Assembly: GCF_017348835.2 (NCBI RefSeq)
Contig: NZ_CP071375.1
Source: Escherichia coli
Lineage (GTDB): Bacteria; Pseudomonadota; Gammaproteobacteria; Enterobacterales; Enterobacteriaceae
Direction: 5' to 3' (one strand)
DNA: 64,000 bases
This document shows, piece after piece, positions 51,001-57,000 of this stretch (position 1 is its first letter; each line of letters starts with the position of its first letter). Position numbers: made by a program.

Positions 51001-54000
51001 ATGCTTTCACTGGTGTAATGCGTGTTGCCGTTTACGGGTACAGGGACAGGAGCATAGACCGTCATCTCTTCAAAAAAATGCATGTACATGTTTTTGTCAT
51101 CGACGGCCTGCGCCACATCAGCGCCACATAAAATGACGCCAGGAATAAGAACTCGCTTCATTTATTTATATCTCCGTACAGCAGGGCTTTTATTGTTTTT
51201 ATAAAACCGCGCTAATGTCACAAATATCATCGGCCAGGTTCCAGACACCGGGTTGATGTGTAACCATAATGACGCCGCTTGTGGGTAGTTTTTCACGCAC
51301 TAAACGCAGTAAGCGGATAGCCTCTTGTTCCTCAAGATGAGAGGTAGTTTCGTCAAGAAATATCCATTTCGGACGTCGTAAAATTAATCGTGCCAGGGCG
51401 ATACGTTGTTTTTCGCCGCTGGAAAGAATATCTCCCCAGCGATCGTGGTCATGAATACGCGCAGCCAATTTCCCCAGACCAACCTGATGCAGTACTTCGC
51501 TCAACGATTTATCGTCTACGGGCAGGGGAAGTGCTTTACAAATAATCTCTTTCAGTAAGCCGGTTTTGATTAACGGTGTTTGTGACACATACCAACTGTC
51601 AGCAGGAGAAGAAATATCACCTTTAAACCACGGCCAGCAGTGGGATAATGTTTTAAGCAGTGTGGTTTTTCCCGCACCAGAGTAGCCTTTCAGTAATAGC
51701 CATTTGCCTGGCGAAACATGAAAGTTCAGGTTCTCTAATATGATCTTATTATCAGGCGTACGAATACTCGCATCAGCCACTTGTACCGCATGTTGGCAAT
51801 TTTTAGGCTTATTCGTAGGGCGCTGTTCAGTGAGTTGATGGAACTCATACAAGCGATCGATAACCGCAGCCAGTTCAGCAAGTTCGTCATATTTATAAAT
51901 AAACCAGCTTAAATTGTTCGATACCAGCATAAAGGCCTGGCGCGATTTCATCAGTCCGCCCAGATTGATCTGCCCGCTAATAAACTGCGGCAATAACAGA
52001 AAGTAGGGAAGAACGCTAAGCGAGCGCGAATAAATATTCTGCCAGTAATCAAGCCACCGCTGACGATTCATTAAACGATGCCAGTTCTCTTTAATGGTAT
52101 GAAAATTGTCGCTCAACTCCTGGCGTTGTAGAGACTCAGCATTGCTTAGCGCAATCTGTTCTGCCTGCTTATTATGCTGCACAAGATTTGTTCGAAATGT
52201 CGCTTCGCTACGTTGTTTTTCCACATTAAGCGGACGAATACGTTTACCCACCTTATGGGTAAATAAAGTTCCACCGATCACAATGAGCACGACGGTATAG
52301 ACCATATACCCCTGGATATTCCATTCTGTTCCACCAACAGTGAATGAGAGCGTACCCGCGCTTTGCCAAAGAATAACGGTAAAGGTGATCAGCATGCTAA
52401 GTGACTGGATGAAGCCAAATGAAAGACTGAGCGTTTTGCTGATCAGTAAGAGAATGTCTTCAGCGATACGTTGGTCAGGGTTATCTGTATTTTTATGCTC
52501 GCCGTAGATCTGCGTGAAGTAGTAGTTTTTATCTGCAAACCACCGATTAAGGTAGTAATCTGTTAACCATTCGCGCCAGCGAATAGTCAGCAGTTTAATT
52601 AACCATGTTTTGTTTACGGATATTAATACAAAGATCCCCAGCAGGGCAGGGAACCAAAGGACAAGCTGCCAAAGCTTATCGGTTTCTTTCTGGCTTAGCG
52701 CATTGAAAAAATCATTATTCCAGTCGTTTAACCAGACCTGAATTTTAACCACGCCAAGGATCATGGCGAGGATAATAATGATTAACAACACTGAAGTTTT
52801 ATTATTCTTACGCAGCCAAAAGGGCTTCAGCAGACAGAGATACTTTGCTATCAACATACAAAACGTAATGGGAATGGTTATCATTAGCGAAAATTGATTG
52901 TGCCATCCAATGATTATCTATGGCAATGATTTACTGATGAAATTTATTTAAGTATCACTTAACAATATGAAATATAAAGAAATATTTCATTTTCATCAGT
53001 TATGGTTATGCTATTGATAATCAAGGGTATTGCTAATACCCTGACGCATACCACGTAAGCCAGGATTTTCGCAAGGGAAGATGATGATGACGAAACACCC
53101 GACAGGAATTTATGTCGGGTGCCTTGTTAAGGTCATAAGAAGGAGGCTAAGAATGGAGCTAAAAGAGAGCGTTATTAATTATTCTCCATTTGTTTTGCAA
53201 CATCCATAATGTGGTAAAGCGGTACTCTGTTCTTAGCTAACTCCACCATGGCGTTCATATAAGGTACCATGGTTGAAAAAAGGATTTTATAACCTTCGCA
53301 AAAATAAGAAACAGTCTCATTGTTTACTTTAGTAATACGATGCTTAGGACAACCGCCATTGCAGATAGGTTTATATGCACATTGCTGACATTTCGCTGAA
53401 ATCCGTTTTTTTTGCGCTGTCAGTTGTATACTGTTCATCGTTTTGAGTTCAGATTTATTAATGTTTCCAATTTTGTACTGTGGATAGACAAAATGGTCGC
53501 ATTCGTAAATGTCTCCATTACTTTCAACAACCAGATTATCCTTGCAGGACTCCTGGAAAATACAACTGGTATGCCCATTCCCCAAAAAACGGCTGACAAA
53601 GCTTTCAAACTGACGAATGAAAATTTCACCCACATCGTTTTTAACCCATTGCATAAAAATGGTTGACATAAACTTGCCATAAGCCGTGGGAGGCACAGAA
53701 AAATCAATGATACGGAATGTGTTCTCACTATGACCACTGAAATCAATATTCGGCGTCCCGGTTTCTAGCAATTCGATAAATTGCATATGTTTACTGCCGA
53801 TAGATTTTAAAAAATGATAAACCTCAAGAGGATAATGGACATTAACGTTATTAATGACGGTTAACGTATTAAACTCTACTTGATATGATTTCAGACGGTC
53901 GATGGCTGCTATCACTTTTACAAAAGTACCGTTACCTGAATTACTGCGTCTGTAACGGTCATGTAACTCCTGGGGGCCATCGATCGAGATACCAACCAGA

Positions 54001-57000
54001 AATTCATGTTCTTTGAGAAAGGCACACCATTCATTATTCAATAAAATGCCATTCGTCTGTAATGCATTAAAAATACGTTTTTGGCCTGCATAGCGTTGTT
54101 GATAGTGAATAACTTTACGGAAAAAATCCAGGCCAGCCAGAGTGGGTTCACCGCCTTGCCAGGTAAAATAGACCTGATTGCCAGACGCTGCGATATATTG
54201 TTTGATGAACTCTTTCAGAGTACTGTCATCCATCCATTTTTCATGAGTAAACTGCGACTCTTTTTCAAGGTAAAAACAGTAATCACATTTGAGATTACAT
54301 TGAAAACTGGAGGGCTTGGCTGTAACGTGCATCGCTATCTCGCTCAATAAGGCGGCGGAAAATTCCGCCGCATGAAGGTTTAGTTATTTCGCTTCGCTTA
54401 GTGCTTTCTTGATATTGTTAAACTTCTCCTGATTTACCTCGCTAAGCGGTGGCTGGCTGCTGTCGATAAACTCTCTTACCACGCCTTGCATCTCTTTAAC
54501 GACCTGCGGATTGGCGGCGGCAAGGTTATCTTTTTGCTGTAGATCCGTCAGTTTGTAGAGACCTAACTGATTGTTTTCTAATGTATAGACAAGCGAATAA
54601 TCGTTATTTCTCACCGTATAAGAGAATTGGCTTAAGTCCTCAGTGTTGGGGTTATGCGGGTAATCGTCTGACTGATGACGGACAAATTTGTGGTAATTAT
54701 CCCAGAATGGAATATTTTCCTCATCAAACCAGTGAGAATAAGAGGTTATCCAGGTCAGATTTTTATGTGGCTCGCCTTGTTTCTTATCTTGCAACCAGGG
54801 CAGCAAGGAAACGCCATCCAGCTTAAGGTCTTTTGGAATGCTGATATCGGCTGCATCAAGAGCTGTCGGGTAGAAATCCATTGCGGAAATCAGCTTGTCA
54901 TAATTACCGGGTTGAAGTTTTCCTTTCCACCACATAAACATTGGGGTGTGAGTACCGCCAGGATAGGTCTGACTCTTATAGCCTTTCTGCGCCCCGTTCA
55001 GCGGCAGAGGACCATCGATAACCGCACCATTATCGGAGGTAAAGAGAATAATAGTATTGTCATACTGTCCGTTTTTCTTCAGTTGTTCGAGAATGCGTTT
55101 TACACCCTGATCAACAGAATAAACGGAAGCGTAGTAGTTATCTGCCGTTTGACTACCGGTATTAAATTGCTTCTGATATTGCTCCGGTGCAGGATTATCA
55201 TTTGGCAGGTGCGGAGCATTATAAGCCAGGTAAAGCATAAAAGGCTGGTCAAGTGTTTTGGCACGATCAACAACGCCAATTGCTTCATCGGTTAACTGAT
55301 CGCTGATATAACCTTTTGCGGGGACGCGTTCACGATTTTTGAACAGTGAAGGGGAGTTGTAATATGCCGTTCCTGCAGCGTGGAATCCCATAAAGTAATC
55401 AAAGCCACGGTTTTGAGGTTGCCATTCTTCCGCAGAAAATGTGGTGAAGTTGTCATGATAGTCACGCGTTTGTTTATCTTCCGGTACCGGCACATTACTG
55501 ATTTTTGACAAGTGCCATTTACCTACTGCTGCAGTGTAATAACCATGATTCTGGAATAATTCAGGCAAGAAAGTTTCTGTTAGCGGAATACCATCCTGAG
55601 CATCGGTATTGGAATAGACACCAAAGCGGGCGGGAGCTCGACCGGTCATTATTGCGGCGCGGGAGGGGCCGGAAACACCGTGTGCCACATAGCCGTTAGT
55701 AAAACGTACGCCTTCATCCATTAATGAAAGGAGCGTCGGCGTTGATTTTTGTGCAGCTTCAATGGCTTTATCTATCCCTATTTTGTAGGTATCGACAACT
55801 TCACGATTTTCCATTGTTTTTGGGTCAAAAGATCCCTTATCAAAAGGAAGTTGTCCATAACCAAGATCATCCATGGTCAGTACGATAATATTTGGCTTTC
55901 CTTTGGTACTGTATTCTGTCGGCGTAAAGTCTGAGAAAGCAACGTTTGTTTTGGTTGCTTTCAGCTTTACATCATCTGCCGCATGAGCAGCAAATGCAGC
56001 CATACCAGATGCCAGTATCAAAGATATCGAGGTACTTACGACACTTTTCTTTAATGCAGACTTCATAAATGTTCCTCTTCTTATTGTACTTAATTCCAAA
56101 GTAATTTTACGAAGAGAAATAAGTGGATGTAAGTGAAGTTAGTCACATAAAGAGATAGCAGATTTAGCTAAGAAAAGGGAAATAACAGTCCATAAAGCGT
56201 TGACATTACTTTCTGTTCTACTAAGTAATTTCTCGCCGATAAACAACTAATCTATTGATATTTAATAAGTTATTGTATTTTACTGACAAAATTCCGAATT
56301 GAGATCATAAATAATCATGCAACAGATTATGCAAATGCATAAATATGTGATGAATGTCACTTATTTATTTCAATAAATATATCGCCTAAAAACAACGCGG
56401 GGCAAGGAATGGCTGCCCCATTTAATTCTTACGTAGCGTGTGTGGTTGACTACTCGTTAGCAAATAATCAAATAGCTAAAGCACTCATCGTGTTGTCCGT
56501 GTTCATACCGGTGTGCCTTTGACAACGGTACTCCTTAGAAACTCTCTTCGGACTGTTGCCGAAATGTTTGCGGAACGCATAAATAAAATAAGATGTACTG
56601 GCATAACCACATTGTTCGGCAATTTTATTGACTGAACCTTCTACGCGTATCAAATTTTTTGCGTGCTGCATTCTGGCATCTAAAAGAATCTGTGAGAATG
56701 TCGTTTGCTCTTGCTTAAGTTTTTTCTTCAACAGGCTTTCACTGATGTACAGGCAGTCACAAATATCTTTCAGCTTCCATGGGTGCGCCAGCTTCATGTT
56801 GACAATATTTCTCACTTTCCTGGAAACGGATAGCACACCGTTAGTTAATAGTGTAATGAAACCTTTGCATGCGGCAAAAATAGACAGGCAAGAAAAAAGC
56901 AAAAGTTCTGAAAAATTATGATGATTGCGTTCTTCCGAGTTGAGATAAGCAATCATTTCATTAAGCAATCCAGTCGGTACATTTGAAGCACGTAAAAACT

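Follow-up and report, generated by a model that had tools for sequence, protein, structure and literature searches.

The ydeN-ydeM pair of Escherichia coli: a probable two-gene operon for a Ser-type periplasmic sulfatase and its activating enzyme

The window analysed here, a stretch of 64,000 nucleotides of Escherichia coli DNA (contig NZ_CP071375.1), contains two adjacent genes on the same strand, ydeN and, 51 bp downstream of it, ydeM (Table 1). The original prediction had placed at 53175-56066 an AT-rich pair of genes next to ydeO and safA, with S-G-P-S-R in the ydeN product, and the radical SAM CxxxCxxC motif CNLKCDYC together with a C-terminal cysteine cluster in the ydeM product. This description holds throughout. 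Both open reading frames lie there on the minus strand, and the GC content is 38.3% for ydeM, 44.1% for ydeN and 42.0% for the pair, compared with 48.5% for the window. S-G-P-S-R occupies YdeN residues 132-136 within a full sulfatase signature, CNLKCDYC occupies YdeM residues 12-19, and all eight SPASM cysteines of a solved anaerobic sulfatase maturase are present. The neighbours are ydeO (56468..57229), safA and then ydeP according to the RefSeq annotation of a 100% identical record, which labels the first gene of the pair 'ydeN: sulfatase-like hydrolase/transferase'. Both genes start with ATG, that of ydeN having a good Shine-Dalgarno sequence (AAGAGGA). The TTG starts further upstream that mechanical ORF extents give (56099 for ydeN, 54347 for ydeM) are ruled out by RefSeq and by the orthologue N-termini MH[VIF]T.KP.

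Table 1. Features of the ydeN-ydeM locus (positions in the window).
Feature	Position	Strand	Basis
ydeM, 385-aa radical-SAM/SPASM anaerobic sulfatase-maturating enzyme (predicted)	53175..54332	-	ORF, TIGR03942, Pfam, PDB 4K36
SPASM region of YdeM with eight cysteines (C257, C263, C278, C315, C318, C324, C328, C345), putative two auxiliary [4Fe-4S] clusters	53298..53564	-	alignment to 4K36/4K37
Radical-SAM cluster motif of YdeM, C12-NLK-C16-DY-C19	54276..54299	-	aligns with CNLKCTYC of solved anSME
GC-rich hairpin GCGGCGGAATTTTCCGCCGC in the 51-bp ydeN-ydeM spacer, no U-run after it	54352..54371	-	8-bp stem, MFE and centroid structures
ydeN, 560-aa precursor of periplasmic S1 (formylglycine-dependent) sulfatase, Ser-type (predicted)	54384..56066	-	ORF, Pfam, RefSeq, AlphaFold2
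Formylglycine signature of YdeN, S132-G-P-S-R136, then AAIMTGR	55659..55673	-	sequence; P134, R136 invariant in 40-sequence alignment
Sec-type signal peptide MKSALKKSVVSTSISLILASGMAAFAAHA of YdeN, residues 1-29, A-H-A cleavage motif, no twin arginine	55980..56066	-	read directly from sequence
ydeN upstream region, AT-rich (~32% GC), downstream of ydeO terminator	56067..56397	-	GC content; terminator-like site; promoter-like match

The Pfam Sulfatase model (PF00884) matches YdeN over the full length of the model (1-301) with an E-value of 1.3e-70. The sulfatase signature is SGPSRAAIMTGR (S132-G-P-S-R-A-A-I-M-T-G-R143), in agreement with the family signature (C/S)-x-P-x-R followed by xxx(L/M)TG(R/K). 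In an alignment of 40 relatives, with identity down to 31%, no variation is seen at D66, D67, P134, R136, H185, H286, D345, N346 or K364, and conservation at K183 is 90% or more; the metal-ligand and catalytic residues are also identical in alignments to 9HH2 and 6BIA. From family knowledge, we take the metal ligands to be Asp/Asp/Asp/Asn and the catalytic residues to be Lys/His/His/Lys. The AlphaFold2 model of YdeN (pLDDT 89.9), in which residues 1-46 are disordered, has the fold of an S1 sulfatase, and its best solved matches are S1_19 structures, with TM scores of 0.80-0.82 normalised to target length. YdeN is among the listed periplasmic proteins of tolA vesicles (PMC7973035). As the serine, the export signal and the radical-SAM partner are all present, YdeN probably belongs to the Ser-type (AtsA-like) periplasmic sulfatases. 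None of the NCBIfam sulfatase equivalogs matches YdeN at its own cut-off, and curated models therefore leave the specificity of YdeN unassigned.

YdeM scores 502.7 bits with the NCBIfam equivalog TIGR03942, 'anaerobic sulfatase maturase', whose curated cut-off is 349.45, and it also matches Pfam Radical_SAM and Pfam SPASM. Its residues 4-359 align with the solved anaerobic sulfatase-maturating enzyme (anSME) of PDB 4K36 with an E-value of 3.9e-62. Each SPASM cysteine is aligned to a cysteine of 4K36/4K37, and D279, next to C278, is aligned to the corresponding Asp of 4K36. The orthologues from Yersinia, Aeromonas and the Anaerobiospirillum-like contig have the same eight cysteines. A role as a RiPP maturase is rejected because YdeM falls far below the curated cut-offs of all such models (DynA, DarE, YhhB and others). 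Given the Pfam Sulfatase, TIGR03942, Radical_SAM and SPASM matches, the motifs of YdeN and YdeM are not chance occurrences, and the alignments support the family membership of both proteins at the level of individual residues.

The two genes are reported to be co-transcribed (PMC10878103). The hairpin in the spacer between them is thermodynamically unremarkable (z -1.68 in a 71-nt context, not significant) and therefore is not claimed as a regulatory element; three other genera have different GC-rich hairpins in the same spacer, and any role of the E. coli hairpin would be conjectural. The ydeN-ydeO spacer has a GC content of 31.7%, with a terminator-like site of ydeO at 56420..56398 and a promoter-like match in the ydeN upstream region. 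A ChIP signal of AraC has been found upstream of ydeN only with arabinose (PMC3738151), and ydeN has been described as a direct AraC target (PMC10878103). The best match upstream of ydeN to the AraC half-site TAGCN7TCCATA has 3 mismatches, with a window-wide count below chance, and a search for Rfam families within 50000..60500 found none. Expression of the pair has been reported to fall strongly at pH 4.4 and to rise with a sulfonated azo dye, and the protein has been found in cultures grown anaerobically in rumen fluid.

The pair is already known, consisting of well-known annotated E. coli genes, as the DNA of the window is 100% identical to that of E. coli PE164, the pair is carried by 5322 of 5426 complete E. 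coli genomes (~98%; intact and at least 95% identical), and the RefSeq annotation is the same. Its reading as a sulfatase with a maturase adds nothing beyond that annotation and the literature. What is new here is a sharper substrate hypothesis and the finding that the Ser-type state is specific to a mobile cassette. The original prediction that the natural substrate is unknown agrees with a 2024 paper (PMC10878103), and no activity, formylglycine or substrate was found demonstrated for either protein in the literature examined. These observations taken together suggest, with a probability of roughly 85%, that ydeN and ydeM form an operon of two genes, encoding a periplasmic Ser-type formylglycine sulfatase and its cytoplasmic activating enzyme.

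The following scheme may be proposed for the activation of YdeN; its chemistry, the sequence in which modification and export occur, and the nature of the substrate are all inferred. The radical-SAM [4Fe-4S] cluster of YdeM, held by C12, C16 and C19, would cleave S-adenosylmethionine. The resulting 5'-deoxyadenosyl radical would then take the C-beta hydrogen from Ser132, within SGPSRAAIMTGR, of the still-unfolded YdeN, and the electron would be carried off by the two auxiliary SPASM clusters, giving C-alpha-formylglycine without oxygen. The modified precursor would next be exported by the Sec pathway with removal of its 29-residue signal peptide. In the periplasm, the hydrated formylglycine would hydrolyse a sulfate ester, with a divalent metal presumably held by D66, D67, D345 and N346, and with K183, H185, H286 and K364 likely to bind and protonate the sulfate and the leaving group.

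The signature is of the Ser type (SGPSR) in all 120 homologues listed, which comprise near-identical E. coli entries and orthologues of at least 70% identity from about ten other genera. Outside this group the nearest relatives share 45% identity or less, and 104 of their 113 motifs are of the Cys type. The Ser-type signature thus appears to be confined to the clade that has a YdeM partner. In the window the maturase adjoins the sulfatase, and it does so again in each of the seven further settings of the orthologue clade that were examined. These are Yersinia, Aeromonas, an Anaerobiospirillum-like metagenome contig, Salmonella, an Enterobacterales island, Iodobacter and Leminorella, where the YdeM orthologues are 52-66% identical and lie 43-223 bp downstream of the YdeN orthologue. 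The flanks of the cassette are unrelated between settings and frequently have IS, integrase or relaxase genes nearby: sulfatase and maturase move together as a self-contained two-gene cassette. In the YdeN-clade settings examined, glycan-utilisation genes never stand beside the cassette, nor does any conserved transporter, glycosidase or regulator gene adjoin it, so that an inference of the substrate from these neighbourhoods failed. Adjacency is not absolute, since some E. coli have a diverged second ydeN-like copy (77% identity) without an adjacent maturase. A conserved porin-sulfatase-maturase module is not supported, because the upstream porins of Aeromonas and of this second copy share only 32% identity.

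The closest characterised relative of YdeN found is PB_3285 of Photobacterium sp. QA16, a chondroitin-sulfate GalNAc-6-O-exosulfatase (PMC8819143). P0406, which agrees with PB_3285 in name, length, signal peptide and C109/P111/R113, is 40% identical to YdeN over 504 residues, end to end with 4 gaps. The member of this sister clade from Plesiomonas lies within a locus for the utilisation of chondroitin/dermatan sulfate and GalNAc (aga), with its own anSME adjacent (43% identical to YdeM). As a lead only, the relatives point to a galacto-configured sulfated sugar as the substrate of YdeN. The clues disagree on the position of the sulfate, which is 6-O for PB_3285 (~40% identity) and 4-O for the S1_19 enzymes (26-29%). 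Our best guess would be a small sugar or hexosamine of galacto configuration that carries sulfate, for instance GalNAc-6-sulfate at the end of an oligosaccharide, released from host glycosaminoglycan or mucin.

That YdeM is a dedicated maturase, as had been predicted, is borne out indirectly by its adjacency, the reported co-transcription, the pairing in all settings examined and the confinement of the Ser type to the clade. YdeM might instead be a general anaerobic maturase, or YdeN might be matured mainly by AslB or a third system, the adjacency being historical. It is known that anSMEs accept Cys- and Ser-type substrates alike; the sister-clade locus has an anSME alongside Cys-type sulfatases, and the second ydeN-like copy has no maturase of its own. 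Moreover, work published in 2007 on deletion mutants of aslB and ydeM reportedly indicates a third maturation system in E. coli, so that YdeM need not be the sole maturase. We nevertheless hold a non-dedicated YdeM to be unlikely, as the pairing has been kept in the window and the seven other settings despite complete turnover of the flanks, the sulfatase and the maturase have diverged in parallel from the sister locus (43% identity for each), and purifying selection acts on both genes.

This selection is strong, with dN/dS between E. coli alleles of 0.02-0.07 for ydeN and 0.08-0.20 for ydeM. It argues, with the intactness of the pair in almost all complete genomes, the responses of the pair to AraC/arabinose, pH and dye, and the detection of the protein in rumen-fluid culture and in vesicles, against the very improbable case that ydeN-ydeM is a silenced, horizontally acquired relic, functionless in present E. 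coli. Such a relic would fit the high AT content of the pair relative to its surroundings, the mobile contexts of the cassette elsewhere and the absence of a known phenotype, deletion of ydeN having been without effect in the single reported assay. It is hardly credible that the reaction of YdeN is of another type of the alkaline phosphatase superfamily, the hydrolysis of phosphonate monoesters or phosphodiesters, rather than of sulfate esters. Catalytic promiscuity is a known trait of formylglycine enzymes with this fold, the RefSeq name is noncommittal, and YdeN weakly matches Pfam Phosphodiest and the PehA phosphoric/sulfuric ester hydrolase model (1.1e-18, 67 bits against a cut-off of 900). 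By far the best matches, however, are sulfatases (arylsulfatase and choline-sulfatase models, carbohydrate sulfatases), a characterised GalNAc-6-O-sulfatase stands at 40% identity, and the sulfatase signature and residue set are complete.

A joint reading of the sulfatase-maturase operon may be offered, tentatively and as rather doubtful in its entirety. YdeN might act in the periplasm as an exo-sulfatase on small sulfated sugars of galacto configuration, for instance GalNAc-6-sulfate or the sulfated ends of chondroitin or mucin oligosaccharides that other gut bacteria set free. E. coli and other enteric and aquatic Gammaproteobacteria would thereby cross-feed on host glycans via the GalNAc/GlcNAc pathways, and arabinose-bound AraC would turn YdeN off when plant sugars are present. 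The Cys-to-Ser switch would then mark a lineage that turned into a mobile two-gene cassette, strictly dependent on its anSME and hence anaerobic. In E. coli K-12, sulfatase genes without a known substrate remain. In Bacteroides, according to work cited in PMC10878103, foraging on the glycans of the host mucosa requires anSME-activated sulfatases. Should YdeN remove sulfate from sugars derived from the host, this would give Enterobacteriaceae a definite means of cross-feeding in the anaerobic gut, and would explain why a stand-alone cassette is kept in ~98% of E. coli as well as in Yersinia, Salmonella, Proteus and Aeromonas.

The ydeN-ydeM pair can be compared to the AtsA/AtsB system of Klebsiella and to the clostridial and Bacteroides anSME systems (solved anSME structures 4K36-4K39). 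Common to these and to YdeN are the serine and the Sec signal peptide, and, as in YdeM, a radical-SAM/SPASM maturase encoded next to the sulfatase that has CX3CX2C and eight cysteines for auxiliary clusters. They differ in that the E. coli maturase follows the sulfatase. YdeN comes from a different sulfatase lineage, with carbohydrate sulfatases as its best matches, and it reaches 124 bits with the NCBIfam arylsulfatase equivalog, whose cut-off is 481. The best solved-structure matches by sequence (E-values of 2e-52 to 3e-50) and by fold are the galactose-4-sulfate carrageenan sulfatases of SulfAtlas S1_19, ZgCgsA (9HH2-4), Ps iota-CgsB (6B0J/6BIA) and PsS1_19B (6PSM). Their catalytic set is identical to that of YdeN, but they are Cys-type marine polysaccharide enzymes, 26-29% identical overall, which have neither a 27-residue insert (YdeN 82-108) nor the complete C-terminal extension. 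The clade of PB_3285 (Vibrionaceae, Plesiomonas, Edwardsiella, Providencia and Pasteurellaceae) is a sister of YdeN and not orthologous to it: identity is 40-43% between the two clades, at least 63% within that of PB_3285 and at least 70% within that of YdeN. The PB_3285 clade is Cys-type in 118 of 119 members and sits in a glycosaminoglycan/GalNAc utilisation locus, whereas YdeN is Ser-type and ydeNM is a stand-alone cassette; a PB_3285-type orthologue is thus rejected on identity, Ser for Cys and the lack of glycan-utilisation neighbours in the settings examined. PB_3285 has the same 27-residue insert after the DDLGxGQ motif, the whole C-terminal subdomain and a signal peptide, as YdeN does.

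The ydeN-ydeM pair, a sulfatase gene with that of its maturase, is real and its interpretation as such is correct, yet this core E. coli locus is already annotated in that way and was known before. The locus has reportedly been in the literature since the 1990s-2000s. Both ORFs are read from the minus strand in head-to-tail arrangement, within the RefSeq gene order pqqL-yddB-yddA / yneP / ydeM-ydeN / ydeO-safA-ydeP, with ydeM annotated as 'anaerobic sulfatase maturase' and ydeN as 'sulfatase-like hydrolase/transferase'. E. coli PE164 matches 53175..56099 at 100% identity, and 5322 of 5426 complete E. 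coli genomes contain this stretch at a coverage of at least 80%, almost always in one chromosomal copy. The coordinates, gene names and neighbours of the original prediction are correct, because the ORFs and the RefSeq annotation, together with the PE164 identity, agree with them. The pair had also been called AT-rich, and rightly so, since its GC content is 42.0% against 48.5% for the window, with 31.7% in the ydeN-ydeO spacer.

Features of the ydeN-ydeM locus, in window coordinates
Feature	Coordinates	Strand	Remarks
ydeN ORF	54384..56066	-	560 aa from ATG; AAGAGGA precedes the ATG
ydeM ORF	53175..54332	-	385 aa from ATG
GC-rich hairpin GCGGCGGAATTTTCCGCCGC	54352..54371	-	Without U-run; ydeN-ydeM spacer, E. 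coli
Promoter-like match, weak	56133..56104		5' of ydeN
Terminator-like hairpin	56420..56398		At the ydeO end

TTG starts at 56099 (ydeN) and 54347 (ydeM), which are mechanical ORF ends, were set aside; RefSeq uses the ATGs, and in three other genera the orthologous maturases begin with the same MH[VIF]T.KP as YdeM does from its ATG. The RefSeq 'protein YneP' is a 40-codon ORF (53087..53209, plus strand) that is convergent with ydeM and covers its last 35 bp. The human isolate E. coli SCU-387 (L011 1-635) lacks yddA and yddB; a truncated pqqL pseudogene directly adjoins the yneP/ydeM end, and ydeM-ydeN is intact.

On TIGR03942, 'anaerobic sulfatase maturase', YdeM reaches 502.7 bits, above the curated cut-off of 349.45, and it carries the Pfam domains Radical_SAM and SPASM. 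A role as a maturase of other peptides was rejected: YdeM scores far under the cut-off of every related peptide-maturase model. Residues 4-359 align with the solved Clostridium anaerobic sulfatase maturase (anSME) 4K36/4K37 with an E-value of about 4e-62. The predicted CNLKCDYC motif and C-terminal cysteine cluster are exact: C12/C16/C19 and C257, C263, C278, C315, C318, C324, C328 and C345 are all matched in that enzyme, and the Asp following the third SPASM cysteine is aligned as well.

YdeN carries a full-length Pfam Sulfatase domain (E 1.3e-70), and the expected S-G-P-S-R signature is present at S132-R136, continuing as AAIMTGR. In an alignment of 40 sequences, with identity down to 31%, D66, D67, P134, R136, H185, H286, D345, N346 and K364 do not vary, and K183 reaches a conservation of at least 90%. 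From what is established for S1 sulfatases, these residues are four metal ligands plus a Lys/His/His/Lys set. The N-terminus MKSALKKSVVSTSISLILASGMAAFAAHA reads as a typical Sec signal, has an A-x-A site and lacks a twin arginine; the protein contains no cysteine. Its AlphaFold2 model has a mean pLDDT of 89.9 and is confident except in the signal region. Several database entries (P0001, P0002, P0003, P0008 and P0013; 742-878 aa) show YdeN joined with portions of YdeO, YdeP or fimbrial chaperone domains; they come from single contigs, and have the look of errors in gene calling or assembly, not of true fusions.

The conserved pairing of the two genes, the SGPSR clade, dN/dS and the reported co-transcription support the view that YdeN and YdeM are functional partners. 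Settings of YdeN orthologues (70-84% identity) were examined in Yersinia, Aeromonas, an Anaerobiospirillum-like metagenome contig, Salmonella, an Enterobacterales island, Iodobacter and Leminorella. A YdeM orthologue lies 43-223 bp 3' of the YdeN orthologue, on the same strand, in 7 of these 7; where it was measured, the identity of these maturases is 52-66%, and their cysteines are the same. The flanks differ in all settings and often have IS elements, integrases or a relaxase close by; the two genes behave like a mobile unit, a self-contained cassette of sulfatase and maturase. SGPSR is found in 120 of the 120 listed YdeN homologues, many of them near-identical E. coli entries. The identity of YdeN relatives then drops from about 75% to about 43%, and beyond this gap 104 of the 113 motifs that could be recognised are Cys-type. 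A comparison of divergent E. coli alleles gives a dN/dS of 0.02-0.07 in ydeN and of 0.08-0.20 in ydeM, and the two genes are reported to be co-transcribed (PMC10878103).

A second ydeN-like gene, diverged from the first, is present in some E. coli (L005 2615-5544; 565 aa, 77% identity, Ser-type; cluster n=303), with an OmpC/PhoE-like porin gene upstream and short ORFs and an IS110-family transposase downstream. No ydeM-like sequence or maturase remnant was found beside this copy. As it stands without a maturase, and as anSMEs take both Ser and Cys substrates, the partnership does not prove that YdeM is exclusive to YdeN.

Unrelated GC-rich hairpins occupy the same spacer site in Yersinia, Aeromonas and the Anaerobiospirillum-like contig (L002 10671-10729, L003 10680-10739, L004 10662-10885). 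The spacer hairpin, which is statistically unremarkable, may set the sulfatase:maturase expression ratio.

AraC was bound upstream of ydeN only with arabinose (PMC3738151), and ydeN is described as a direct AraC target, with de-repression when araC is mutated (PMC10878103); a sequence search found no convincing AraC site. At pH 4.4 ydeN is down about 40-fold (PMC10746267). Of all genes, only ydeN was induced by a sulfonated azo dye, and dye reduction was unaffected when ydeN was deleted (PMC10653809). The protein was seen in O157:H7 cultured anaerobically in rumen fluid and among the periplasmic proteins of tolA vesicles (PMC7973035). The sequence TGTCAAAAATCAGTAATG at 55493..55510 (minus strand), inside ydeN, matches a listed intragenic PhoB ChIP site reported to be transcriptionally inert (PMC10294691).

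No NCBIfam sulfatase equivalog reaches its cut-off for YdeN, whose specificity is therefore unassigned by curated models. Outside the YdeN clade, the closest lineage is the one of Plesiomonas P0122, which is 43% identical to YdeN and colinear with it over 495 residues. The P0122 locus has PTS genes of the GalNAc type, tagatose genes, a porin of the KdgM family and an anSME that shares 43% identity with YdeM. A second sulfatase there is nearly identical to 6J66, a solved chondroitin/dermatan sulfate 4-O-endosulfatase (E 2e-289). What looks like a compact locus for the use of chondroitin/dermatan sulfate lies in Plesiomonas shigelloides (L013 1-14348). Its aga-type PTS genes, AgaS/KbaZ-like genes and DeoR regulator come before a 6J66-like 4-O-endosulfatase, a KdgM-family porin, an anSME, a PB_3285-like sulfatase, a PF10022 protein, an aldolase and a PfkB kinase.

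P0406, of the same lineage as P0122, bears the source name 'chondroitin sulfate N-acetyl-galactosamine 6-O-sulfatase [Photobacterium sp.]', and its features (535 aa, a 28-residue signal peptide, C109/P111/R113) agree with the description of PB_3285, which was shown by experiment to strip 6-O-sulfate off the reducing-end GalNAc6S of chondroitin oligosaccharides (PMC8819143). PB_3285 is the nearest characterised relative found for YdeN, which aligns with P0406 at 40% identity over 504 residues with four gaps, a level that leaves its specificity unfixed. This likeness points, as a tentative and rather doubtful lead, to a galacto-configured sulfated hexosamine as the YdeN substrate. The solved folds closest to the YdeN model are the S1_19 carrageenan sulfatases (target-normalised TM 0.80-0.82), with further carbohydrate sulfatases and human arylsulfatase A ranking next, and a sequence search against solved structures ranks these neighbours in the same way. 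YdeN and the PB_3285-like P0406 have in common a 27-residue insert after the first metal-binding motif, whereas the S1_19 structures are without it; the latter act on galactose-4-sulfate, in contrast to the 6-O-sulfate removed by PB_3285.
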